21,111 nucleotides of DNA from positions 1 to 21,111 of the forward strand of contig JBBQPO010000080.1 in assembly GCA_038217285.1 (NCBI GenBank), given 5' to 3'. Below, in pieces: positions 5,117 through 21,111 of this stretch. The stretch's first letter is position 1. Every line of letters starts with the position of its first letter. Both the position numbers and the translations under genes were made by a program. The notes beneath the pieces are model-generated. The model searched no databases, had not been told where the DNA came from, and saw only the letters and a list, made by a program, of their open reading frames with translations. Source of the stretch: Chthonomonadales bacterium (lineage in GTDB: Bacteria > Armatimonadota > Chthonomonadetes > Chthonomonadales > Chthonomonadaceae).

Positions 5117-5803
5117 ATGGTCGAGTTGAAGAGCTGGCGTAACGGACTGCTGAAAGAGCTACTGCTGACACTGCCCGCAGAGGACAGTTGGGACGAAATG
5201 CTGGCGCAGGTCGAGGCCGTTTTGGACGAAGCGAAGGTAAAAGCCTCGGCGCATGGGGCGCAACTGACGCTCGACATGGGGGTGCGGTCGGTGACGTTCG
5301 AGCCGCTGGCGGAGCTGATCGAGCGGCTGCGCGTGGACTATAGCCTGCTGACGGTATCGGTCATCTCGACGGAGATGCTGACGCAGGAGTCGGCCCGTCG
5401 GCTGGCGCTGAACGTCTACTCGATGCTGCCGGGCACCAGCGCGCCGATCGCAGCGCCGGAAGCGATTCCCGGCAGCAATGCGCTCTATCTGCCGAATACG
5501 GTGCGCTCGGGGCAGCGCATCGACCATCCGGGCACGGTGATCGTCGGCGGGGATGTGAATGCGGGCGCGGAGGTGATCGCGGAGGGCGATATTCTGGTGT
5601 TTGGCACACTGCGCGGGCTGGCGCACGCCGGCAGTCGGGGCAGTGAGAAGGCGCGTATCGTCGCCGGGAATATGCGGCCGCAGCAGATACGGATCGCGGG
5701 CAAGATCGCCCGGTCGCCCGAGGACTCCAGCCCGACACCCGGTGCCCGTAACCCGGAGATCGCCCGCATCGAAAACGGAGAGATCCAGGTCTCCCCTGCA
5801 TAG
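5117..5803 (+). CDS. minC: Septum site-determining protein MinC
   Basis: C-terminal MinC beta-helix motifs TVRSGQRI, GDVNAGAEVIAEGDILVFGTLRGLAHAG and PQQIRIA. GGAG RBS precedes the ATG at 5117. Confidence 0.93.
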   Translation: MVELKSWRNGLLKELLLTLPAEDSWDEMLAQVEAVLDEAKVKASAHGAQLTLDMGVRSVTFEPLAELIERLRVDYSLLTVSVISTEMLTQESARRLALNVYSMLPGTSAPIAAPEAIPGSNALYLPNTVRSGQRIDHPGTVIVGGDVNAGAEVIAEGDILVFGTLRGLAHAGSRGSEKARIVAGNMRPQQIRIAGKIARSPEDSSPTPGARNPEIARIENGEIQVSPA

Positions 5804-9717: not shown

Positions 9718-10274
9718 GAACAAAGAAGCGGTGGTTTCGCGTGGGGCCAGGCTTGCTCCTTGCCCTTATCGTTGCAGGGGCAATCCTGGCTTCGGGGCAG
9801 TGGTTCAACAAGATGCCTACGGATCCAGGCACAGGAAGTATTGTCTGGGAGGCCGATGCGCACGGACATCTGCGCCGCGTGAGTGCGCCTACGACGCCAA
9901 AGCAGGGAGTGCCACCCCGGCTCTGGAAGCCCGAGGTAAGTCTGCTTTCAAAGAGTGCTTCGCTTCTTCACCTGACCGCTGCGCAGCGCACTTGTCTGGC
10001 TGCTCTGGCTACGGCCTGGGAGCGCGAAAAAGCGCAGATCGAGGCAGAGATGGATCGGGCCTCTACCAACGCTCGCGCCGTTGCTGCACACGCCACTCCG
10101 GAGCGAGCCGCTTCCGCTACGCAGATGATGCAGCGCCTTGGCGACTACTCTACGCTCTCCGCACAGTACGACTCTCGACGGACGGCCTATTGGGTACAAG
10201 GGTACGCCATTCTATCGCCGGAGCAACAACGAAAGATGGAGAGCCTTACCGAGGCCGCAAGGAGAAAAGAGTGA
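9696..10274 (+). CDS. Membrane-anchored periplasmic helical protein with LTxxQ motifs (Spy/CpxP/ZraP-like)
   Basis: AAGGAG RBS and GTG start, an N-terminal TM segment, and LHLTAAQR and ILSPEQQ motifs flanking a long helical region. Confidence 0.65.
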   Translation: MQSHNRLGTKKRWFRVGPGLLLALIVAGAILASGQWFNKMPTDPGTGSIVWEADAHGHLRRVSAPTTPKQGVPPRLWKPEVSLLSKSASLLHLTAAQRTCLAALATAWEREKAQIEAEMDRASTNARAVAAHATPERAASATQMMQRLGDYSTLSAQYDSRRTAYWVQGYAILSPEQQRKMESLTEAARRKE

Positions 10275-11623
10275 CCATACACCGACCGATACGCAGGCTC
10301 GGGAGTATTACGCTCTTTGTAGCCCTCCTTGGCAGCCATTCGCTTCTTCTCGCTCACGCGCAGACGCTCGGAGCGGACCAACCCAAATTAGCGGGGCCAC
10401 TCTCGGTTGCGCGGGCCGTGCAAACCGGCTTACGCGAGAACCTGATGCTACGGGCCGCCCGCGCGGATGTGGCGGCGGCGGCAGCGGAGACGCGTGTTGC
10501 CAAAAGCCAGACCCGGCCCCAGGTTTCCGCCAACACCTATCTGTCCTACGGGGATTTCAGCAACATCTTAAACACCGCGCCGAGTGTCGCGCCGACAAAC
10601 TACCTCAACGTCCCCTCGCAAGGGTTTGCCGATCAAAACGTGACCCTTATGGCTCCGCTCTACACCAGCGGGCGCTTGAGCAACCTGGTGCGCGCCGCCT
10701 CCCTGCGGGAACGCGCGGTGACTCAGGATGTCGGTGGCGTTCAGGCGGATACGGGTCTGCGCATCAAAGAGGCGTACTACCGCGCTCTGCTGACCGGCGA
10801 GGTCATCAAGGTGGCTCAGTCGCGTGTCGACGCCGATATCGAACTTGTCCGAAACGCTCAGGCGCTCTTTACCGCAGGGAAAGGACTGGAAGCGTCCGTA
10901 CGCCGGGTGGAGGCTGAGCGCGCAGACGCAGACCGCGCGCTGACGACCGCCCGTAACAATCAGGCCAAAGCCCTTCTTGATCTCAAGGCTGCGATGGGTG
11001 TTCAGCTCGGCTCCGACATCACGCTCGCCGACGCCCTTACCTTTGCGCCCCCCTCCGGAGACCTCGCAAAGCAGCTTGCGGACGCCGCGCAGACGCGTCC
11101 GGAGCTGCTTGCCTCCCGCTCCCGCGTGCAAGCGGCAGAGGCGCAGACACGGTCCGTGCGCGGCTCGCAGGGGCCGCAGGTGGCCGGGATGGCTATGGCG
11201 GACGGGTTTACCTCGCATCCCCTTGGTACCCGTGAAGGCTATACCGTCGGTATCGTCATCAGTCTGCCGCTTCTGGACGGCGGCCAGCGCAGAGCCGAAA
11301 CGGCCCTGGCCCGTGCGCATGCGGAGCGTGCCGACGCCGAGCGGCGCGACCTGGAGCTCCGGATAGCGAACGAGGTAACGCAGGCTTGGCTGGATGTCGG
11401 GACGGCGGCCGAGAACTACCGCAGCGCACAGACTGGGCTCCAGTCGGCACAGGCTTCTTATGACGTCACCGCGCTGCGGGTGCAAAACCAGAAGGGGATC
11501 CTGGTCGAACAGCTCGATGCGCTCGCCGCTGTCGTCCAGGCGCGGGGCAGTGTGGCGCAGGCGCTCTACGATCACGCGCTCGCCGTCGCTCGGCTTCAGC
11601 GCGCTGTGGGGAGGCCAGAGTGA
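10271..11623 (+). CDS. TolC-family outer-membrane efflux protein
   Basis: GTG overlaps the upstream TGA (GTGA). Signal peptide, LSVARAVQTGLRENLML, two OEP repeats (PLYTSGR, RPEL, SLPLLDGG) and terminal LQRAVG. Confidence 0.9.
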   Translation: MTIHRPIRRLGSITLFVALLGSHSLLLAHAQTLGADQPKLAGPLSVARAVQTGLRENLMLRAARADVAAAAAETRVAKSQTRPQVSANTYLSYGDFSNILNTAPSVAPTNYLNVPSQGFADQNVTLMAPLYTSGRLSNLVRAASLRERAVTQDVGGVQADTGLRIKEAYYRALLTGEVIKVAQSRVDADIELVRNAQALFTAGKGLEASVRRVEAERADADRALTTARNNQAKALLDLKAAMGVQLGSDITLADALTFAPPSGDLAKQLADAAQTRPELLASRSRVQAAEAQTRSVRGSQGPQVAGMAMADGFTSHPLGTREGYTVGIVISLPLLDGGQRRAETALARAHAERADAERRDLELRIANEVTQAWLDVGTAAENYRSAQTGLQSAQASYDVTALRVQNQKGILVEQLDALAAVVQARGSVAQALYDHALAVARLQRAVGRPE

Positions 11624-13959
11624 ATCATAGGATGCAAGCCTTTCTTAAGGAACATGGACAAGCGATGAATGTACGAATTATTGCCCTTCTCGTACGCTTA
11701 CTCTGCGCACTCTGTTTGGCGCTGATCGCGCCGATTACTGCGCTTGCCGGGCCCACGACCGAGGCCGGACCCTATCGCATCGAGCTGGCGACCAGTCCGG
11801 ATGTGATCGTCGTGGGCAAGGGGAAGCTGCTGCTCAAGATTACGGACGCCTCCGGCAAACCCGTCGAAGGGGCCAGGATCATGGCTCTGGCGAAGATGCC
11901 GGGCATGAACATGGGCGAGCGCGAGCAGCCCGCCGCAGCCCAGCCTGGTCAGCCCGGCGTCTATGCCGCCCCGGCGCAGTTCGCGATGGAGGGCGGGTAC
12001 GAGGCGACGATACGGATCGAAGGCACCGCAGGCACAGCGACAGCGACACTCTCCTTGACCACAGGGCAGAGCACGGGACCGCTGTCCGGTTCAGGCGCTG
12101 CCTCCGGCGCTTCAGCGTCTTCCGCCCCTACAAGCGGCCGCGGGTTTCGCCTGCTTCCGCTCTTGCCCTGGATCGGCGGCGTGCTGCTGATCGCCTTTGT
12201 GCTCCAGCGGATGCGGCAAAGCGGGCAAAAACTCCACTTCAAGGGAGTCTTCAACCGCACCGTACTCGTTGAAATGTTACTGATGGCACTGTTCCTGGCA
12301 GGAGCCTACTACGCCGTGAGTCACTTCCGCCGGCCGGGAGCGATGACGCCTATGGAAGCGCAGTCCATGGAGATGAATCTTCCTGCGCCTCAGGGCACGG
12401 CCCCCGTAGAGTTGGCCACGGTGACGGAAGGTCCGCTTCAGAGCACGGTGCGCTATACGGGGCAGGCCGTGGGGTATGTGGAGCAGGACGTCTCGCCCCG
12501 CATCACCGGAGTCCTTGTCTCTATGCCGCTCTATGTCGGAGACCGGGTGAGACGGGGACAGATCGTGGCCCGTCTCGATACCTCGCAGAGCGCCCCTCAG
12601 GTCGCCAGTCAGCAGGCGGGCGTGATCATGGCGCAGGAGGGAACCGCCGTCGCAGAGAAGGATTACGAGCAGGCTCTCTCCCTGGTGTGGCAGGCCGAAG
12701 CCGAAGTCGGCATGAAGACCGGAGCCGTCGACTCGGCGCGCGCGGACATCACGACTGCGCAGGACGAGCGCACAAGCGCCCAGGCAAATCTTACGGCGGC
12801 TCAAACCATGGTCGGGGATGCGAACGCCCAACTTCAAGCGGCGCAGGCCGATCAGCGGTACTGGCGACAGGAGATCGACCGCGAAAAATCTCTGCTCGCA
12901 GCCGGAGCCGTGACACGTGACGAGTTTCAGCGCGAAACGGCGCAGGCGGAAAATGCCGACGCCAAAGTGCGGCAGTCACAGGCGCGGATAGACCAGACGC
13001 AGGCGCAGGTCGCAGCCGCTGTCTCAGGCGTCCACAAAACCGATTCAATGATCACGTCGGCACAGGCAAAGCTCACGCAGGCCCTATCGGACCTGACCGC
13101 GTATCACGCGCATGTCCATTCCGAAGAGGCGGCCGCGATTGCCGCCCGGCAGAAGATCAAGCAGGCGCAGGCAGGCGTTGCACAGGCGCGTGCCGGTCTC
13201 GCCGGGGCGGCGGCCACACGCGGCTACAGCGAAATTCGCTCGGAGACGGACGGCGTCGTCACGCAGCGGGTGATCAGCCCCGGCGTACTCGTGAACCCGG
13301 GCCAGACCATCCTGAAAATCGCCCAGATCTCTCCGATCCGCTTACAGGCGAACGTCGCCGAAAACGACCTGGCGCGGGTCCGGGTGGGAGGCTCGGTGCT
13401 GATACACAGCCAGGGCGCTTCGGGAAAATTCCTTCCAGCGCGCATCAGCTCGATCGCGCCTTCTGTCGATCCGACTTCGCGTACCGGCGTCGTTGAAGCC
13501 ATTGTCCCCAATCAAGACGGTCGCTTACTGCCCGGCCAGTACCTTGCGATGGACCTCCTGACAGGACGAGACGCGAACGCGCTGCGCATTCCGACCCGCG
13601 CCATTCGCCACCATACGCCTCCTTCCGGCGGCGTCATCTCCACAAAGACCGCGGCCTATGTCTGGGTTGCGGAGCCTGTCGCCGGCCAGGAGAAGCAGTA
13701 CACGGTGCAGGAGATAGTGGTGCAGACGGGCCTGACCGATGCAACCGGCACCGAGATCGTCTCGGGCCTGAAGGCGGGGCAGCAGGTCGTGGTCGCGGGC
13801 CAGGACTACCTCAAAGACGGAGACACGGTCTCTCCCGTCAGCGCGCCGGAAGCATCTGGAGGAGGCGCCATGCCGAATATGCCAGGCATGTCCAATACGC
13901 CGAGCCCGAACAGGGGCTCCCTGCAGGGAATGCCCGGAATGAACGGAGGCGCGAGGTGA
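11620..13959 (+). CDS. RND periplasmic adaptor (membrane-fusion protein) with N-terminal YtkA/FixH-like domain and Met-rich tail
   Basis: N-terminal DASGKPVEGA..KMPGMNMG..PGVY..FAMEGGY (YtkA-like), two internal hydrophobic segments, lipoyl halves (VGDRVRRGQIVARLD; IRSETDGVV..PGVLVNPGQ), a long coiled coil, VDPTSRT and GLKAGQQVVVAGQ. GTGA coupling at both ends; alternative ATG at 11665. Confidence 0.88.
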   Translation: MNHRMQAFLKEHGQAMNVRIIALLVRLLCALCLALIAPITALAGPTTEAGPYRIELATSPDVIVVGKGKLLLKITDASGKPVEGARIMALAKMPGMNMGEREQPAAAQPGQPGVYAAPAQFAMEGGYEATIRIEGTAGTATATLSLTTGQSTGPLSGSGAASGASASSAPTSGRGFRLLPLLPWIGGVLLIAFVLQRMRQSGQKLHFKGVFNRTVLVEMLLMALFLAGAYYAVSHFRRPGAMTPMEAQSMEMNLPAPQGTAPVELATVTEGPLQSTVRYTGQAVGYVEQDVSPRITGVLVSMPLYVGDRVRRGQIVARLDTSQSAPQVASQQAGVIMAQEGTAVAEKDYEQALSLVWQAEAEVGMKTGAVDSARADITTAQDERTSAQANLTAAQTMVGDANAQLQAAQADQRYWRQEIDREKSLLAAGAVTRDEFQRETAQAENADAKVRQSQARIDQTQAQVAAAVSGVHKTDSMITSAQAKLTQALSDLTAYHAHVHSEEAAAIAARQKIKQAQAGVAQARAGLAGAAATRGYSEIRSETDGVVTQRVISPGVLVNPGQTILKIAQISPIRLQANVAENDLARVRVGGSVLIHSQGASGKFLPARISSIAPSVDPTSRTGVVEAIVPNQDGRLLPGQYLAMDLLTGRDANALRIPTRAIRHHTPPSGGVISTKTAAYVWVAEPVAGQEKQYTVQEIVVQTGLTDATGTEIVSGLKAGQQVVVAGQDYLKDGDTVSPVSAPEASGGGAMPNMPGMSNTPSPNRGSLQGMPGMNGGAR

Positions 13960-16900
13960 GCCAGATACCGTCCCATAAGAATGCGCCCGCTACGCCGCCG
14001 CCGGGGCACCGCATGAACGCGCTTCACTTAATCCATAAATGGTCCATCGAGCATCCTTATGCGGTGATCGCCTTCTACGTGGCGATGATGGGCCTGGCCT
14101 GGATGACCATCAGCCACACCATGCCGCGTCGATTCGCGCCCTATGTGGAAAGTCCTATGATCGGGGTCGTCACCATGATGCCGGGGCTCTCCGCCCAGGA
14201 GATGGAGATCTACGTCAGCAAGCCCATCGAAGAGCAGTTGATCAACGTCAAAGGGCTGCGCTATATTCGCTCGAACTCGCAAAACGGGTTCTCGATCGTG
14301 ACGCTTCAGTTCCCCTACGGCACCAATATGCAGCGCGCGATTGTGGATATTCAGGCGCTCATGAACGTCACGCAGTCCAACCTGCCCGCGACGGGTGCGA
14401 ACCTAAAACCCTCCTGGGTCGTGCCGATCGATCCGCTCAATCTGCCCATTCTCACATTGAGTCTGCGCGGGGATCCGAAAGCGGGCTGGGACGCGGTGCG
14501 GGCGCGCGAGTTCGCCGATAACACGGTCGTGAACCGCATAAAGGAAGTTCCGGACGTCTACTCCGTCGTGCCCTTTGGCGGCTATCGGCGGCAGATGCAG
14601 GTGGTTGTGGACCGCGAGAAACTGGCCGCCTACCGGCTCTCTATTTTAGACGTCAAAAACGCCATTGATCGCTACAACGTCAGCCGTCCGGCAGGTACGC
14701 TGACGAGTGGCGCGCAGGAGGGAATCGTGCGCGTCGATACGCGCGCCCTGAGTGCGGAAGATATCCTGGGCTATCCGATTACGAGCGTCGGCAGCGACGC
14801 TTCCGCGTCCGGGTCATCACCTTCCGGCGGAGCGCCTGCGGGCGGTGGCGGGGGCGGCATGGGAGGTGGAGAGGCGCCCGGTGCCGCGCCTACGCCCTCC
14901 GCGCCGGTCGGTGCGTTGCGTTCGCCGCGCGTGATCTATGTGCGCGATGTGGCGCGAGTCGTGGATACGCACTTCGAGCGCCGAAGCGGCTATCACTACC
15001 TTAAGCACGAGCCGGGTACGAAAGGCGAGGTTATTCCCTCCATCGAAGTGTCGGTCATCCAGGATCCGGGGGCCAGTTCGGCGACCGTGGTTCCCGCCGT
15101 CATGAAGGTCATCAACCAGCTCGAAGACGAGAATCCTGGCCTGCACTTCGACGTCTCCTACGACAACGCCCACTTCGTGAACATTCTCTTTCACAACGTG
15201 TGGGAAGAGCTTCTGACCGCCGTCCTTCTCACGGGCATCGCCATCTTGTTCTTCTTGGGAGAGTGGCGGGGAACGCTCATCGCGATGATCGCGCTTCCCA
15301 CATCCCTTGCGATCGCCGTGATGATGATGGTGCCATTCGGCATGACTTTCAACAGCGGCACCCTCATCGGCCTGCTCCTCGCTATCGGTCGGCTTGTCGA
15401 TGACAGCATTATCGACATTCACGCGGTGGAGCGTCATCTGCGGATGGGGAAGGACCCGAAGACCGCGACCATCGACGGCATTGCGGAAGTACGCCTGGCG
15501 GTAATCGCCTCGACGATCATGATCGTGCTTGCCCTCTCACCGCTGCTCTTTTCAGGGGGGATCACGCAGATCATGTTCAAAGAGCTGGTGTGGCCGCTGA
15601 TCTTCGGCCTGCTGGCCTCGATGCTGGTCTCCTTTACGTTGACCGCCCTGCTCTGCGCGAACCTTTTGCGGCCGGAAAGCGCGCGGGAGACAGACCGAAA
15701 GCATCCCATTATCAAGTGGCTCTACGTCGTGCTCGACCCGTTCCAGCGGTTCTTAGACCGACTGGACGGTGGTTACGGGCGCCTGCTTCGCTGGATGCTG
15801 AAGCACCGATTCGCAAACATGGTCCGCGTCTTCTTAACCCTCATCGTCGGGTTTACCTTCTACTACTTCATCGGCAGTGAGATGATGCCGCTCGCCGATG
15901 TCGGTCAGGCCAATGGTCTTTTGGAGATGGCTCCCGGCACCTCCTATGCCGAAACAGAACGGGCGGTCGGGCAGCTTGAGCGTATCCTGCAGAAGTACCC
16001 GGAGGTGGAGAAAGCAAGTATCGAAATAGGCGCCGAGACCATGTTTGAGAGCTGGACCCCATTCTACACCGGCTACCAGATGCCCCAGGTAAACGGGGCC
16101 TCCATGATGCTGACCTTCAGCGACAAGGATAGCCGCAAGCGCACGATTTTTACTATTATCGACGCGGTCCAAAAGGAGGCCCTACACACCATCCCCGGCA
16201 TTCGGCGCCTGCAGATCAAGGAGATGGGCAGCGACGTCATGGCAACCTCTGCCGCCCCTGTCCATGTCAATATCTTTGGCCCGGACTTAAAGGAACTCGA
16301 CAAGCTGGGCGAGGAGGCGCTCGGGGTCGCCAGGAAGATGCCGGAGATCTTCCAACCCGGAACGACCTGGACGATAGGACTGCCGGATTATCAGATCAAA
16401 GTCGATCCGCAGCGGGCGCAGGAGGTCGGGCTCTCGCCGGAGAGCATTTCGCAGCAGGCCTACTATGCACTAAGCGGGGGGCTGACAAACGAGTTTTATC
16501 GGTTGCCCAACCTGAGGCAGGATACCATCCAGGTGCGCTACGAGCAGAAGGACCGGGCGAACGCGCAGAGTCTGGAGAACCTGTATCTGACAACCCCGGA
16601 CGGACGGCAAATTCTGCTCAAGTCGGTCGCGACTATCGAAGACGGCAATGCCCCAACCGTCATCGAGCACGACGGTTTGAAGCGGGTGATCGGCATTACG
16701 GGCTACTACCGTACAGAGGCGCTCCCGACGATGGATGTGGTGATGAACCTCGTTGCCAACATCTATGCCGGTAATAAGAAGTTAGGTATCCAACCGATAA
16801 ACTTTCCGCCCGGCTACGGCATGGAGATGCGCGGCGACATGACGGAAATGATGGACTCCTTCCGTCGCATGATCAGCGGCCTGACGCTGGCGCTCGCGCT

Positions 16901-17462
16901 CATGTACCTCGTCCTCGTGGTGCAGTTCCGGGGCTTCCTGCAACCGCTGCAGATGATTGCCTCCCTGCCGCTCGAGCTTGCGGGCGTCTTTACCGCGCTG
17001 TGGCTGGCGCACCAATCGTTTTCAACAGTCTCTATTCTAGGCATTATCGTGCTGACCGGCATGGATATCACGACCGCGGTGCTGATGATCGACCTGATCA
17101 TGAAGTACCGGGACCGGGGCGTACCGCGAGATGAGGCCGTGATAAAGGCGTGTCCGGATAGGCTGCGTCCGATCCTGATGACGACAGGGATTACGATCAT
17201 CACGATGCTCCCCGTTGCTCTTGCGCCCAAGACAGGGCTGGACGCCTATCAGCCGCTTGCGACGACCGTGGTAGGGGGATTGCTTGTGGGGACTGTCTTA
17301 AGTCTTCTGGACATTCCCATCATGCACACCTATGTGGATGATCTCACGCGCTGGCTCACCAAGACGTTCCGCAACCGGGATTGGGAGTGGCCCGTGACGG
17401 AGGCAGACGACCTGCACGAGGTAGATGGCAGTGAATTAGGCGACGTGTCAAAGAAGCTATAA
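13956..17462 (+). CDS. RND-family efflux permease (AcrB/CusA superfamily)
   Basis: PGLSAQEMEIYVSKPIEEQL, TM4 AIGRLVDD, RLRPILMTT, PLATTVVGGL and the two-repeat RND topology over 1168 aa. Confidence 0.93.
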   Translation: MSQIPSHKNAPATPPPGHRMNALHLIHKWSIEHPYAVIAFYVAMMGLAWMTISHTMPRRFAPYVESPMIGVVTMMPGLSAQEMEIYVSKPIEEQLINVKGLRYIRSNSQNGFSIVTLQFPYGTNMQRAIVDIQALMNVTQSNLPATGANLKPSWVVPIDPLNLPILTLSLRGDPKAGWDAVRAREFADNTVVNRIKEVPDVYSVVPFGGYRRQMQVVVDREKLAAYRLSILDVKNAIDRYNVSRPAGTLTSGAQEGIVRVDTRALSAEDILGYPITSVGSDASASGSSPSGGAPAGGGGGGMGGGEAPGAAPTPSAPVGALRSPRVIYVRDVARVVDTHFERRSGYHYLKHEPGTKGEVIPSIEVSVIQDPGASSATVVPAVMKVINQLEDENPGLHFDVSYDNAHFVNILFHNVWEELLTAVLLTGIAILFFLGEWRGTLIAMIALPTSLAIAVMMMVPFGMTFNSGTLIGLLLAIGRLVDDSIIDIHAVERHLRMGKDPKTATIDGIAEVRLAVIASTIMIVLALSPLLFSGGITQIMFKELVWPLIFGLLASMLVSFTLTALLCANLLRPESARETDRKHPIIKWLYVVLDPFQRFLDRLDGGYGRLLRWMLKHRFANMVRVFLTLIVGFTFYYFIGSEMMPLADVGQANGLLEMAPGTSYAETERAVGQLERILQKYPEVEKASIEIGAETMFESWTPFYTGYQMPQVNGASMMLTFSDKDSRKRTIFTIIDAVQKEALHTIPGIRRLQIKEMGSDVMATSAAPVHVNIFGPDLKELDKLGEEALGVARKMPEIFQPGTTWTIGLPDYQIKVDPQRAQEVGLSPESISQQAYYALSGGLTNEFYRLPNLRQDTIQVRYEQKDRANAQSLENLYLTTPDGRQILLKSVATIEDGNAPTVIEHDGLKRVIGITGYYRTEALPTMDVVMNLVANIYAGNKKLGIQPINFPPGYGMEMRGDMTEMMDSFRRMISGLTLALALMYLVLVVQFRGFLQPLQMIASLPLELAGVFTALWLAHQSFSTVSILGIIVLTGMDITTAVLMIDLIMKYRDRGVPRDEAVIKACPDRLRPILMTTGITIITMLPVALAPKTGLDAYQPLATTVVGGLLVGTVLSLLDIPIMHTYVDDLTRWLTKTFRNRDWEWPVTEADDLHEVDGSELGDVSKKL

Positions 17463-17485: not shown

Positions 17486-17512
17486 TGAACGGCGCTCTCT
17501 CGGGCGGTGTCT
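17486..17512 (+). promoter_or_regulatory. Possible ECF-type (autoregulatory) promoter
   Basis: TGAAC (17486-17490)-N18-GTCT (17509-17512), immediately upstream of AGGAGG (17521-17526) and the sigma gene. Matches the generic ECF AAC...GTC pattern. Confidence 0.35.
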
Positions 17513-17538
17513 CTGGTAGTAGGAGGCGAGAGCAGAGG

Positions 17539-18126
17539 ATGGCAGAAGCGCAATCAGACGAATATCTGCTGGGCAGGATCGGCGAACGGGATGCCGAGGC
17601 GTTCGAGACGCTCCTGACGCGGTACCAGGAGAGCGTTCGCGGGCATCTCCTGCGGACGGTGCGCGATCCCAACACGGCGGAAGACCTGACTCAGGAGGTC
17701 TTTCTGCGGGTCTGGACGCGCGGCGAACAGTGGAACGGCCATGGCCCCTTCCGTGTCTGGCTGTTCCGCATCGCCACCAACCTGGCCCTCAACTATCTCC
17801 GCACCGTGCGCCGCCGTCGGGAGTGTCCCCTGGAACTGCCCTCCGATGGCCCGGACGAAGAGAGCGTGCCGCGTATCCCCGACTGGATGATCGACCGCGC
17901 CAACGCCGGCCCAGAGCGCGCGCTGGAGCAGGGTGAGCGTCGCCGTCAGTTGCAGCATCTGGTCGAAGAGTTGCCGCGCGAGAAGCGCGAGGTGTTCCGC
18001 ATGGTCTTCGACGCCGAGATGGAGATACGCGATGTCGCCGAATCGCTGGGCGTCCCGCCCGGAACCGTCCGCTCCCGCCTCCACTACATCCGCAAACGCC
18101 TCGCCCGCGAATGGGACGAGGATTGA
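17539..18126 (+). CDS. ECF-family RNA polymerase sigma factor (sigma2 + sigma4)
   Basis: sigma2: DAEAFETLLTRY..AEDLTQEVFLRVW..FRVWLFRIATNLALNYLR. sigma4: LPREKREVF..IRDVAESLGVPPGTVRSRLH. ATG 17539 lies downstream of AGGAGG. Confidence 0.93.
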   Translation: MAEAQSDEYLLGRIGERDAEAFETLLTRYQESVRGHLLRTVRDPNTAEDLTQEVFLRVWTRGEQWNGHGPFRVWLFRIATNLALNYLRTVRRRRECPLELPSDGPDEESVPRIPDWMIDRANAGPERALEQGERRRQLQHLVEELPREKREVFRMVFDAEMEIRDVAESLGVPPGTVRSRLHYIRKRLAREWDED

Positions 18127-18166
18127 TCGCCTCATGGGAGAGGCTGCTTATCGAAGGAGACATAAA

Positions 18167-21111
18167 ATGGACATGTCTGCGCCCTGGCACAGGGCTTCGT
18201 TTGACCTCTTTATCCAGGAGAAGCTGCCGCAACTGCTGGCCACGCGTCTGCCGTTAAGCGGCTATCGCGTCACTTTCACGTTCGAGACAAGTTGCGGGAT
18301 CGACCTGGCCCTGGGAACGAGTGGGCACGAGGTAAACCTGGGTTTTGGTGAACTGCCACGACCCGATGCGGAAGGCGTTTTCTGGCGCAATGAGAGGCCC
18401 TATGTCGTGCTGCCGACCGCTTCCTGCGATGAACTCGATCAGGCGGAGATCCATTGCGTGGGCGAACAACTCCTGGCAGACATCACCTCCCGCCTCGGGG
18501 AAGCGCCGGACGAGCTGCCCTGGGATGAGGCGCTGGCCCGGCTCTGGCTGCCGCTCGACGGCTGGATACGCGGCTATATCGAGCGTACCGCGCAGGCCCT
18601 TGACACGACCAATCTCCTCAGCCGCAAGACGCATCTGCGCAGGCTCTCGCTGCCGAGTCGCGAAAAAATGTTTACGCCCGGTCACTATGGACGCGCCTGC
18701 CCCATCGAGACTCCGGAAGGGCCGAACATCGGTCGTGTGCTGGTGGTGGCGCGCGGTGCAACGATTCGGGAGGGCCGCCTGGAGATCGTCGATACCCGTC
18801 CCGAGATGATGCTCGGACTCTGCGCCTCGCTCATCCCCTTCCTGGAACATAACGAGCCCTGCCGTGCGCTCATGGGCGCGAACATGCTGCGGCAGTGGGT
18901 CACCCCAGCCGATCCGGAGCGTGCCCTGGTAGGCACGGGCAACGAGCCCGACGATCCGAACTTCTGGTCGGGACACAATCTGGTCACAGCTTACGTTCCG
19001 TGGGGGCTGGACAGCTTCGAGGATGCGATCGCCTTGAGCGAGACCTGCGCGCAACGCCTCTCCACGCCGAAGCCGATTCAGGTGGGCGATAAGCTGGGGA
19101 ATCGGCACGGCGCGAAGGGAGTGGTCAGCCGCATCCTGCCCGACGCCGAGATGCCGCATCTGTCGGACGGCACCTGCGTGGATCTGGTCTACGACTGCAT
19201 GGGGCTCTATTCGCGGATGAATTTCGGGCAGGTGCGCGAGGCGCTGATGGGACGCATCGCCCAGAAGGAAGGCGTTCCCGCGATCATGCCGCCTTTCGCC
19301 GCCCCTTCAGAAGCGGAGTTGAGAGAGCGCCTGAGGCGGGCCGGACTGCCCGAGGACGGTATGGAACAAGTGACGGAAGGCAAGGACGGAGCGCCGCTGG
19401 AGCGCCGGGCGACGGTCGGCGTGGTCTACTGGGGGCGTCTGATCCACACTGCCGCGCAGGGCTATTTCGCCTCGACGCTGCCGGAGGGCTGTCAGCGACA
19501 GGGAGAACTGGAATACTATGCGCTGCGCAACACGGGAGCAACCGCCAATCTGCGCGAGCATTTCTATCTCCGCGCCTCCGAAGCCTGCGATGCCGCGACG
19601 CTGGCCGAGCGTGTGCGAATCGGCACGCCGCTCACCTTCCCCATGCCTTCGCCACGATGTGCGGAGCTGATACGCCGTCTGGCAGCGGCCGGTATTCAGG
19701 CGGAGAAAGGACCGGAGGGGTTGACCTTCGCCTTTGTCGCTCCTACCGAGGAGATCCTGACGCTGGCGCAGCCGATCCCGCATCCCTGGCTGCCGGAGCG
19801 AACCCTGACGGAGGTCGGCGTCTCTTCGGCGGCGCTTCCGCAGTTTCGCGCACTGACGGAGGCCAATGCCCGAATGTCCCGACTCCTGAATATGGGAGCG
19901 CCTGAGACGCTGCGCGCCGGAGCGTTTTGGGAACTGGAGACTGCCGCTCAGCGCTATCTCAATGCGCTCGTTCCCGCATTGCAACTCCGCTTGCAGGCGC
20001 GTCCGATGTTTAACGGGCGGGCGGTCGCAACGCCCGGCGATCTGCGCTACGATCAGGTCGGAATTCCGGAGGAGATGGCCTGGACCCTGTTCGAGCCCCT
20101 GCTGGCACAGGAACTGGGGGAGGCTGCCCTGGTGCCCCGGACAGAGGCGACTGTGCGGCAACTCGATGCTCTGATGGCGCGCTCCTGGGTGCTTGTACAG
20201 CGTTCTCCTGTCATCGAGCCCACCGGCTTCCTGGCATTTCATCCGTTGCGGTGCGCCGGACAGGTCATTCGCCTGCATCCGCTGGCCAACCACTCCCTCA
20301 ACGCGGATTTCGACGGCGACATTCTGTCGATTTTTCTGCCGATCACCGAGGAAGCTCAGCGGGAGGCGGGAGAGAAACTCACGCTGGCCGGGCATCTGCA
20401 CCGTGAACCGGAACTATTGGGAAATTTCCTGCCTCTGCACTCTGCGCGTGCCGGACTGGCACTGCTGGCCCGTACCGCAGAAGGCCGCGAGGAGATCCGG
20501 CAACTCGCCGGTACAGCCTCCCCCTTGCCGGACAGTTCGCTGAATCGCGCCGGCCTGCTCACGCTGGCGCAAGAGGTGCTGACCACGCAGGGAGCGGAAG
20601 CCACTATCGCCGCTATGGACCGCCTGACGCGACGCGGATTCCAGAGAGCAAAGCGGTCCGGGCTCTCCCTCAGTCCCTTCCTAGGCGCGGGCTTCGCGCG
20701 GCCCGATCCGCCGCAGAACCCGAGTGCCGAAATCTGGACATACTGCACCCCTTACTCCACGACGGTCGTGCCTTTCTACCCACCGGCAAACGCCGAAATG
20801 TGGGAAGTCTACACGGAAGAGCTGATCGAGCGATTGCATAGGCACAGCGCCAACGACGATCTGGAGCCGTTCCTGGTTGCGGTACGCAGCGGCGCCCGAA
20901 GCAACTATCCGATCCTGCAAAAGTTTGTAGGAGCTTATGGGGTCGTAGAGGATGTGAAAGGCGAACGTGTCGCCATACAACACTCCCTGTGCGACGGAAT
21001 GACACCGGAGGAGTGCCATACGCTCTGTGTGGGAGCACGCAATGGAATCGCCCGCGCCGCCGCCGAACTGGAGCATGTCAGCCGTACCCTGCGCCAGTCC
21101 AATCTGCCCAC
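18167..21111 (+). CDS. Miniaturised single-chain RNA polymerase beta-beta' fusion protein (3' end outside window)
   Basis: AAGGAG RBS (18154-18159) and ATG 18167; the frame stays open for 981 codons to the window edge. Beta motifs: HYGRACPIETPEGPNIG 18683-18733, SLIPFLEHNEPCRALMGANMLRQ 18827-18895, FED 19016-19024, GDKLGNRHGAKG 19085-19120, SRMNFGQ 19211-19231, GCQRQGELEYYAL 19487-19525. Beta-prime motifs: LTLAQPIPHPWL 19757-19792, FNGRAV..QVGIPEEMAWTLFEP 20009-20098, NADFDGD 20300-20320, GFQRAKRSGLS 20636-20668, SGAR 20888-20899, GMTPEE..GARNGIA 20996-21052. Confidence 0.93.
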   Translation, partial: MDMSAPWHRASFDLFIQEKLPQLLATRLPLSGYRVTFTFETSCGIDLALGTSGHEVNLGFGELPRPDAEGVFWRNERPYVVLPTASCDELDQAEIHCVGEQLLADITSRLGEAPDELPWDEALARLWLPLDGWIRGYIERTAQALDTTNLLSRKTHLRRLSLPSREKMFTPGHYGRACPIETPEGPNIGRVLVVARGATIREGRLEIVDTRPEMMLGLCASLIPFLEHNEPCRALMGANMLRQWVTPADPERALVGTGNEPDDPNFWSGHNLVTAYVPWGLDSFEDAIALSETCAQRLSTPKPIQVGDKLGNRHGAKGVVSRILPDAEMPHLSDGTCVDLVYDCMGLYSRMNFGQVREALMGRIAQKEGVPAIMPPFAAPSEAELRERLRRAGLPEDGMEQVTEGKDGAPLERRATVGVVYWGRLIHTAAQGYFASTLPEGCQRQGELEYYALRNTGATANLREHFYLRASEACDAATLAERVRIGTPLTFPMPSPRCAELIRRLAAAGIQAEKGPEGLTFAFVAPTEEILTLAQPIPHPWLPERTLTEVGVSSAALPQFRALTEANARMSRLLNMGAPETLRAGAFWELETAAQRYLNALVPALQLRLQARPMFNGRAVATPGDLRYDQVGIPEEMAWTLFEPLLAQELGEAALVPRTEATVRQLDALMARSWVLVQRSPVIEPTGFLAFHPLRCAGQVIRLHPLANHSLNADFDGDILSIFLPITEEAQREAGEKLTLAGHLHREPELLGNFLPLHSARAGLALLARTAEGREEIRQLAGTASPLPDSSLNRAGLLTLAQEVLTTQGAEATIAAMDRLTRRGFQRAKRSGLSLSPFLGAGFARPDPPQNPSAEIWTYCTPYSTTVVPFYPPANAEMWEVYTEELIERLHRHSANDDLEPFLVAVRSGARSNYPILQKFVGAYGVVEDVKGERVAIQHSLCDGMTPEECHTLCVGARNGIARAAAELEHVSRTLRQSNLP

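Follow-up and report, generated by a model that had tools for sequence, protein, structure and literature searches.

The 21,111-nucleotide stretch analyzed here (the window) is an entire contig, JBBQPO010000080.1, from a 6.2-Mb assembly of 459 contigs (GCA_038217285.1) of a Chthonomonadales bacterium in the phylum Armatimonadota. At its right end, both on the forward strand, lie a gene for a sigma factor of the extracytoplasmic function (ECF) type and a gene for a single-chain RNA polymerase, hereafter the mini-polymerase, which comparative analysis identifies as a pared-down fusion of bacterial β and β′ (Table 1). Judged by gene order in relatives, the two constitute a conserved two-gene operon or unit, and by sequence both parts belong to known superfamilies, the ECF sigma factors and bacterial β/β′. 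We lean, with modest conviction, toward a reading in which the sigma factor is autoregulated and forms a dedicated holoenzyme with the mini-polymerase. An initial annotation of this DNA had proposed a self-contained two-gene transcription system; the gene content fits that description, while the holoenzyme itself is something we infer.

Pairing of the Sigma Factor and the Mini-Polymerase

A scan of one genome per species returned 201 relatives, and 80 loci were kept. Together with the window, these gave 81 sources, four of which had no upstream DNA, leaving 77 that were informative. The loci belong to Armatimonadota, Chloroflexota, Planctomycetota, Poribacteria, Latescibacterota, Hydrogenedentota, and Kiritimatiellota, plus a Verrucomicrobia-type metagenome-assembled genome. 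The adjacency central to the initial annotation holds in 75 of the 77 loci, where a family sigma factor is encoded directly upstream on the same strand (phmmer E-values from 5e-25 to 1e-131). Of the two other loci, L083 has its sigma gene split in two within ~1 kb of the polymerase gene. L011 has no sigma gene at the locus, and a second, complete, overlapping sigma–polymerase pair resides on another contig of the same genome. Among the four loci that lack upstream DNA, two come from genomes in which a contig end carries the sigma gene. The sigma-less second polymerase copy of L011 (4107–8385) is immediately preceded by an IS200-type transposase-like open reading frame (ORF), and its product carries an extra ~45-residue insert in the β/β′ junction region.

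Clustering of the ORFs from all loci identified just two shared genes, that of the polymerase in 81 loci and that of the sigma factor in 77. No third conserved gene emerged from this clustering, the next real clusters being synteny in ~12 related Poribacteria loci, and Pfam detected no anti-sigma domain in the downstream polymerase. Co-occurrence was then tabulated for sampled Armatimonadota genomes, where the polymerase is found in 18 of 301 and a sigma orthologue (E ≤ 1e-30) in 15. Fourteen of the latter are polymerase-positive, with the two genes at neighboring coordinates, and the fifteenth is a borderline match of 38% identity. In three more polymerase-positive genomes, a family sigma gene overlaps the polymerase gene. 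The pair is accordingly seen in 17 of the 18 polymerase-positive genomes, and the last positive is a fragment only.

The spacing of the two genes in the window is as initially annotated, with the sigma stop at 18126, the polymerase ATG at 18167, and 40 bp between them on the same strand. The reported lack of an obvious terminator also stands, as a simple scan for terminator-like hairpins finds none in this gap; its two matches (18169–18195) fall within the polymerase coding region. The predicted fold of 18100–18200 is unexceptional (z −1.99). Across 68 loci, the distance from sigma stop to polymerase start is at most 5 bp in 42 (28 of them overlapping), 11–26 bp in four, and 40–263 bp in 22, with start codons assigned by a simple rule that renders exact overlaps approximate. 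In relatives where the genes overlap, the polymerase is likely coupled to the sigma factor in translation. Evolutionary distances tell of the same association: pairwise sigma and polymerase distances correlate with a Pearson r of 0.92, a value reached by none of 999 Mantel permutations, which answers the question of co-variation raised by the initial annotation, and their means are nearly equal (0.481 and 0.475).

A Pared-Down β–β′ Fusion

Within the 981 encoded residues of the mini-polymerase, Pfam recognizes Rpb2_3 (residues 143–196), the second half of Rpb2_6 (298–428), and Rpb1_2 (672–735). The protein scores 199.5 bits against the NCBIfam rpoB model (6.9e-59; cutoff 801) and 98.2 bits against rpoC (2.9e-28; cutoff 963.5). 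Full-length relatives measure 1000–1064 residues, and proteins of the family are labeled “hypothetical” or by domain names only; the ESM Atlas likewise holds the family as “hypothetical” clusters. The same atlas contains other families that fuse Rpb2 domain 6 to Rpb1 domain 2, of 1095–1675 residues, including one viral cluster. An AlphaFold2 model of the mini-polymerase (predicted local distance difference test, pLDDT, 85.8; predicted template modeling score, pTM, 0.81) found its top Foldseek matches among bacterial and plastid β and β′ chains, including those of ECF sigma-H complexes.

To describe the anatomy, a profile of 24 family members was aligned to the host's own β and β′, which the genome encodes as separate full-length rpoB and rpoC genes on contig C172 (~2900 residues for both reading frames). 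On the β side, the profile alignment retains a short N-terminal piece, the fork region, the barrel with GDK..NRHG..KG, and the C-terminal part. On the β′ side, it retains the clamp helices, the NADFDGD barrel, and the bridge-helix region, with family positions 794–959 aligned to host β′ 764–953. Both double-psi β-barrels of bacterial RpoB and RpoC are present with their catalytic motifs. The alignment with host β′ starts at family position 558, which in solved structures matches Mycobacterium tuberculosis β′ 341–343, and stops just past the bridge helix, with only ~50 family residues beyond. In the AlphaFold2 model, the helical hairpin of residues 554–601 begins at this position 558.

What the alignment lacks is as distinctive. 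The family has no counterpart in this profile alignment to host β residues 1–460, to the ~170 host β residues that separate the halves of domain 6, to 25 host β′ residues after the clamp helices (the rudder position), or to ~630 host β′ residues after the bridge helix. The flap lies in the missing ~170-residue β segment, and the trigger loop and jaw lie in the missing ~630-residue β′ segment. As aligned, then, the lobes, flap, rudder, and everything past the bridge helix are lost from the mini-polymerase. With large host segments lacking a counterpart and both equivalog cutoffs missed, it does not qualify as a full-length housekeeping RpoB or RpoC.

The catalytic residues have been spared. The initial annotation's statement that the full catalytic set is retained extends to the 61 full-length members of the family: the β-side G, D, K, N, R, H, G, and final G are each found in all 61, as are the second and third Asp of NADFDGD, and the first Asp is found in 58. 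In the other three polymerases, Asn replaces the first Asp. In a separate family alignment, D714, D716, G717, and D718 are invariant, together with the columns of the β-side motif.

The Sigma Factor and Its Promoter-Like Motif

The 195-residue sigma factor contains Sigma70_r2 (residues 25–92, 3.2e-17) and Sigma70_r4_2 (residues 135–188, 3.5e-13) by Pfam. It exceeds the cutoffs of both Pfam Sigma70_ECF (25.3 bits; cutoff 21.1) and the NCBIfam sigma70-ECF superfamily (111.6 bits; cutoff 42.9). No named ECF equivalog reaches its cutoff; the best NCBIfam model, PRK12513, gives 132 bits where 206 are required. The PADLOC defense models give a marginal match only (E 0.0011). Orthologues in other phyla are 43–59% identical. 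Conservation is unusually high in the linker, where W116 and P125 occur in at least 90% of 36 sequences. The longest ORF for the sigma factor opens at TTG 17485, inside the TTGAAC promoter box; because the orthologue alignment supports ATG 17539, we place the true start at the ATG.

Upstream of the sigma gene, the initially noted motif TGAAC-N18-GTCT is present at 17486–17512 (GTCT at 17509–17512). It occurs once in the window, compared with 0.10 expected from 100 shuffles, 10 of which contained at least one match. The motif is also conserved across phyla, as 63 of 72 sigma genes have GAAC-N18-GTC no more than 110 nt upstream and a further two carry it with N17. A weighted profile of the 63 sites yields the consensus TGAAC-ctt...CGGTGTC-tT...aGTaGAgG, in which aGTaGAgG stands at a fixed offset from GGTGTC. 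In the window this element is the AGTAGGAGG box, which is probably the start of a very short leader carrying the Shine–Dalgarno site of the sigma gene. In 57 of 80 loci, the strict form, TGAAC-N15-GGTGTC, is found exactly once, on the forward strand and upstream of the sigma gene; it recurs in the further pairs L182–L184 and L191–L193. Across the ~1.02 Mb of loci, 77 profile matches exceed 15 bits, and 70 of them (62 + 8) are sigma promoters. One of the others precedes the sigma-less L011 polymerase, one is displaced (L052), and five are weak.

In L052, from Chloroflexota, the full motif lies at 1482–1511, ~3.8 kb upstream of the sigma gene, and only its −10 half is repeated beside that gene (~5290–5360); the arrangement suggests that the promoter spacer took up an insertion and that the target site was duplicated. 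In L037 (1–14286), the module is located amid ribosomal RNA genes, of which one for 5S rRNA lies ~120 nt upstream of the promoter motif. As for conserved RNAs near the module, Rfam returned only rRNA and tRNA genes, in nine sources.

Searches for further targets covered six genomes. The 6.2-Mb genome of the host contains three strict matches, against none for a control pattern, and the two besides the operon's own lie within long ORFs. In a profile scan of the same genome, the operon site ranks second and the other high scorers are unconvincing. Five complete genomes contain 16 strict matches, against eight for the control; four of the 16 are the operons' own promoters, and the fifth genome's own promoter has CAGTGTC in the −10-like position. 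Two identical extra matches in one genome were rejected as promoters, as they lie in paralogous coding DNA.

Proposed Mechanism and Alternatives

We propose the following mechanism. The ECF-type promoter TGAAC-N15-GGTGTC and its short leader would drive the sigma gene, with the polymerase gene close behind. The sigma factor would recognize its own promoter, giving positive autoregulation, with the first round of expression probably carried out by the host enzyme. Region 2 of the sigma factor would then dock on the clamp helices of the mini-polymerase to form a two-protein holoenzyme that has no need for α, ω, flap, or trigger loop, and this holoenzyme would initiate at TGAAC-N15-GGTGTC promoters. 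That the sigma factor reads its own promoter we infer from the conservation of the motif across phyla and from its presence before the L011 polymerase. That it presumably serves as initiation factor of the mini-polymerase is suggested by the two-way co-occurrence, gene overlap, equal evolutionary rates, and conserved sigma linker and, above all, by the retention of clamp helices in an enzyme stripped of nearly all else. In bacterial RNA polymerase, sigma region 2 docks mainly on the β′ clamp helices. A review of ECF sigma factors describes the sigma factor as meeting the core chiefly through region 2.2 with β′ and more weakly through domain 4 with β.

Fused forms of the two proteins were also considered. 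P0124 combines region 2 and the linker of the sigma factor with a polymerase that is missing the first ~75 residues, and it has lost domain 4. P0123 is a single sigma–polymerase frame with ~65 unrelated residues where sigma domain 4 is expected, and L077 (5452–6336) reads in frame from sigma factor into polymerase with no stop until the frame breaks after ~95 polymerase residues. A genome scan for the DNA locus of P0124 gave only three ordinary unfused pairs and two weak matches. Fusions of the P0124 type weakly support a dedicated holoenzyme. We rejected the fusions as strong evidence, given the unfused relative of P0124, the unrelated sequence replacing domain 4 in P0123, and the frame break in L077.

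Several observations weigh against a dedicated holoenzyme. The distance correlation and adjacency show co-inheritance and not contact. The fusions are very rare and may be recent deletions or assembly errors, and the nearest relative of P0124, at 73% identity, is unfused. Sigma domain 4 and the −35-like box are conserved, yet the mini-polymerase has lost the β flap, which carries the site where domain 4 usually docks. Ordinary ECF promoters, which the normal core reads, have the same GAAC-N18-GTC spacing, and in the orthologue alignment sigma region 2.2 looks canonical, as does the conserved domain 4. The missing flap, the ordinary promoter geometry, and the canonical region 2.2 fit a sigma factor able to use the host core. 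Furthermore, neither the strict motif nor the profile revealed a convincing target beyond the operon's own promoter in the six genomes, and the separate regulon envisaged by the initial annotation was not borne out.

The ordinary promoter architecture, the missing flap, the canonical region 2.2 and domain 4, and the lack of further promoters in the six genomes also speak for the leading alternative, in which the sigma factor serves the host core only and autoregulates the operon. The mini-polymerase would then be a regulated output that works without the sigma factor, for example as a priming, repair-linked, or specialized RNA synthase. There is a precedent for such independence, as YonO, a single-chain polymerase of the Bacillus prophage SPβ, assembles active elongation complexes by itself, and no promoter factor is known for it. 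We regard this alternative as unlikely, though a serious contender. It leaves unexplained why the clamp helices were kept when nearly all other accessory elements were lost, and it does not account for the frequent gene overlap, equal rates of evolution, and conserved sigma linker. The fused forms in which region 2 is joined to the polymerase without domain 4 are also left unexplained, and no anti-sigma or other regulator is conserved nearby. The dedicated-holoenzyme and host-core readings are not exclusive, as the host core may fire the first round.

An anti-sigma gene usually, though not obligatorily, follows an ECF sigma gene, which raises the question of whether the mini-polymerase is instead a core mimic that sequesters the sigma factor through its clamp helices. 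The polymerase gene occupies the usual anti-sigma position with no anti-sigma domain nearby, and the clamp helices are retained. The conserved catalytic residues, however, argue against a pure decoy, as 58 of 61 members preserve the whole DxDxD triad and all 61 share an unchanged GDK..NRHG..G. In addition, members from at least eight phyla keep the bridge helix and the fork region, and ~1000 constrained residues go far beyond what a decoy needs. The motif searches also gave no known sigma output to restrain, and we consider this role improbable.

Distribution and Genomic Setting

The counts and the tree placement together indicate that the module is a sporadic accessory with some transfer. Within the host's phylum, the polymerase was found in the 18 of 301 genomes noted above, in 13 of 238 when high-quality genomes are counted, and in one of 17 others in the host's own family; in the phylum of a Poribacteria genome, it was found in 22 of 121. 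In the polymerase tree (FastTree, no bootstrap), phyla mostly cluster, but Armatimonadota branches occupy three or more separate positions. Searches of 72,556 plasmid and 50,697 phage records yielded no family member, with no match covering at least 80% of the query, and relatives on 75 viral contigs (L107–L181) are only 18–28% identical over most of their length. The neighbors in the window are ordinary chromosomal genes, including those for MinC, TrpF, and an efflux pump, of similar base composition. ORF clustering of all loci found no integrase or other mobile gene conserved beside the module, and the PADLOC defense-system models matched the polymerase with no family. That the pair is cargo of a phage, plasmid, or integrative element and transcribes that element would suit the sporadic distribution in both phyla and the scattered Armatimonadota branches but is highly improbable in view of the empty plasmid and phage records, the ~20% identity of viral-contig relatives, the lack of a conserved mobile gene, the housekeeping neighbors of matching composition, and the absence of a PADLOC match for the polymerase.

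Comparison with Known Systems

As in an ECF (group 4) holoenzyme, the sigma factor has regions 2 and 4 only, the promoter-like boxes are GAAC at −35 and GTC at −10, and the polymerase is of bacterial β/β′ descent with its clamp helices kept. Sigma factors of this family bind the core and start transcription from GAAC/CGT-type promoters, frequently their own, and a conserved motif of that type precedes the sigma gene here. It differs in being one chain of ~1000 residues instead of β plus β′, without lobes, flap, rudder, or the part after the bridge helix. The pair also lacks an anti-sigma gene and is additional to the normal rpoB and rpoC. The main text and one supplement of a paper on ECF classification do not mention polymerase neighbors. 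Full-text searches, largely confined to papers outside subscription journals, found no description of a sigma factor paired with a mini-polymerase.

Among single-chain enzymes, YonO is credited with efficient transcription in the absence of trigger-loop homology. It is a single polypeptide of ~100 kDa that carries two catalytic barrels but in which no trigger loop can be detected, and the mini-polymerase shares this trait, with one ORF, both barrels, and a β′ alignment ending after the bridge helix. YonO, compared here by description only, is prophage-encoded and shares few active-site residues with cellular polymerases, whereas the mini-polymerase is strongly β/β′-like and chromosomal and has a dedicated sigma factor. 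Orf6 of the yeast killer plasmid pGKl2, an Rpb2::Rpb1 fusion of 982 residues, has the same order of second-largest then largest subunit, about half of each deleted, and near-equal size. Likewise compared by description only, it differs as a eukaryotic cytoplasmic plasmid protein derived from Rpb2 and Rpb1, with no sigma factor.

Full-length β–β′ fusions (NCBIfam PRK09603 and PRK14844, ~2850 residues) join the subunits in one frame and in the same order. They are complete housekeeping subunits, in contrast to the mini-polymerase, which is a third as long and scores 163 and 161 bits against their cutoffs of 5372 and 4632. Finally, the multisubunit polymerases of jumbo phages and AR9 are likewise reduced β/β′ homologues with a dedicated promoter-recognition protein but are viral, consist of several polypeptides, and have no ECF-type sigma factor.

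Locus Layout

The polymerase gene runs off the contig end, and its remaining 20–80 codons could not be located in the rest of the assembly. The stretch 9731–17462 on the forward strand, which borders the sigma promoter on its upstream side, encodes an outer-membrane factor, a membrane-fusion protein bearing a YtkA-like domain, and an AcrB-type pump, and the pump stop at 17462 lies 23 bp 5′ of the TGAAC box. At the other end of the window, 112–1707 on the reverse strand encodes a 531-residue protein with ankyrin repeats and a C-terminal RNA polymerase α C-terminal domain (PF03118, 39.5 bits; cutoff 23.8). ORF clustering showed no conservation of this protein beside the module in other loci. A weak promoter-profile match (15.6 bits) occurs at 2369 on the reverse strand, ~660 nt upstream of its gene.

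Table 1. Coordinates of the sigma–polymerase module and its elements in the window
Feature	Position	Strand	Details
ECF-type promoter-like motif	17486–17511	+	TGAAC 17486–17490 (−35-like), 15-nt spacer, GGTGTC 17506–17511 (−10-like)
Conserved AGTAGGAGG box	17518–17526	+	Fixed distance 3′ of the −10-like element
ECF-type sigma factor gene	17539–18126	+	195 residues, regions 2 and 4 only; ATG 17539, stop TGA 18124–18126
Intergenic spacer	18127–18166	+	40 bp; Shine–Dalgarno-like GAAGGAG 18153–18159, seven bases 5′ of the polymerase ATG
Single-chain reduced β–β′ RNA polymerase gene	18167–21111	+	ATG 18167–18169; first 981 codons, runs off contig end
β-type barrel motif GDKLGNRHGAKG	19085–19120	+	Residues 307–318
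Helical hairpin homologous to β′ clamp helices	19826–19969	+	Residues 554–601; helices 554–575 and 580–601 (AlphaFold2 model)
Catalytic NADFDGD motif, β′-type barrel	20300–20320	+	Residues 712–718
Long helix aligned with β′ bridge-helix region	21005–21100	+	Residues 947–978 (model)

Implications

Given the dedicated holoenzyme that we favor, a broader claim may be made, which we advance tentatively and put just short of an even chance. The pair would be a natural, portable two-protein machine found in many phyla, in which a sigma-dependent single chain of ~1000 residues, encoded in a self-amplifying autogene, initiates at TGAAC-N15-GGTGTC without α, ω, flap, rudder, or trigger loop. We use the term autogene because the only recognizable promoter is the operon's own. 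If this holds, something apart from the flap would have to secure sigma domain 4. A possible candidate is what remains of the β N terminus; the fused P0124 lacks both this remnant and domain 4.

In the general description, bacteria rely on a single RNA polymerase core that exchanges one sigma factor for another. If confirmed, a second core that is minimal, fused, and provided with a sigma factor of its own, conserved from Armatimonadota to Chloroflexota, Planctomycetota, Poribacteria, and Latescibacterota, would be an exception to this one-core picture and the smallest sigma-dependent polymerase known. With the lobes, flap, rudder, and trigger loop absent, it would reveal what sigma-dependent initiation really requires of the enzyme, and it would make the minimum size of a two-barrel, factor-dependent polymerase a testable question. 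In this context, the module may also serve synthetic biology as a compact, orthogonal set of promoter, sigma factor, and polymerase.

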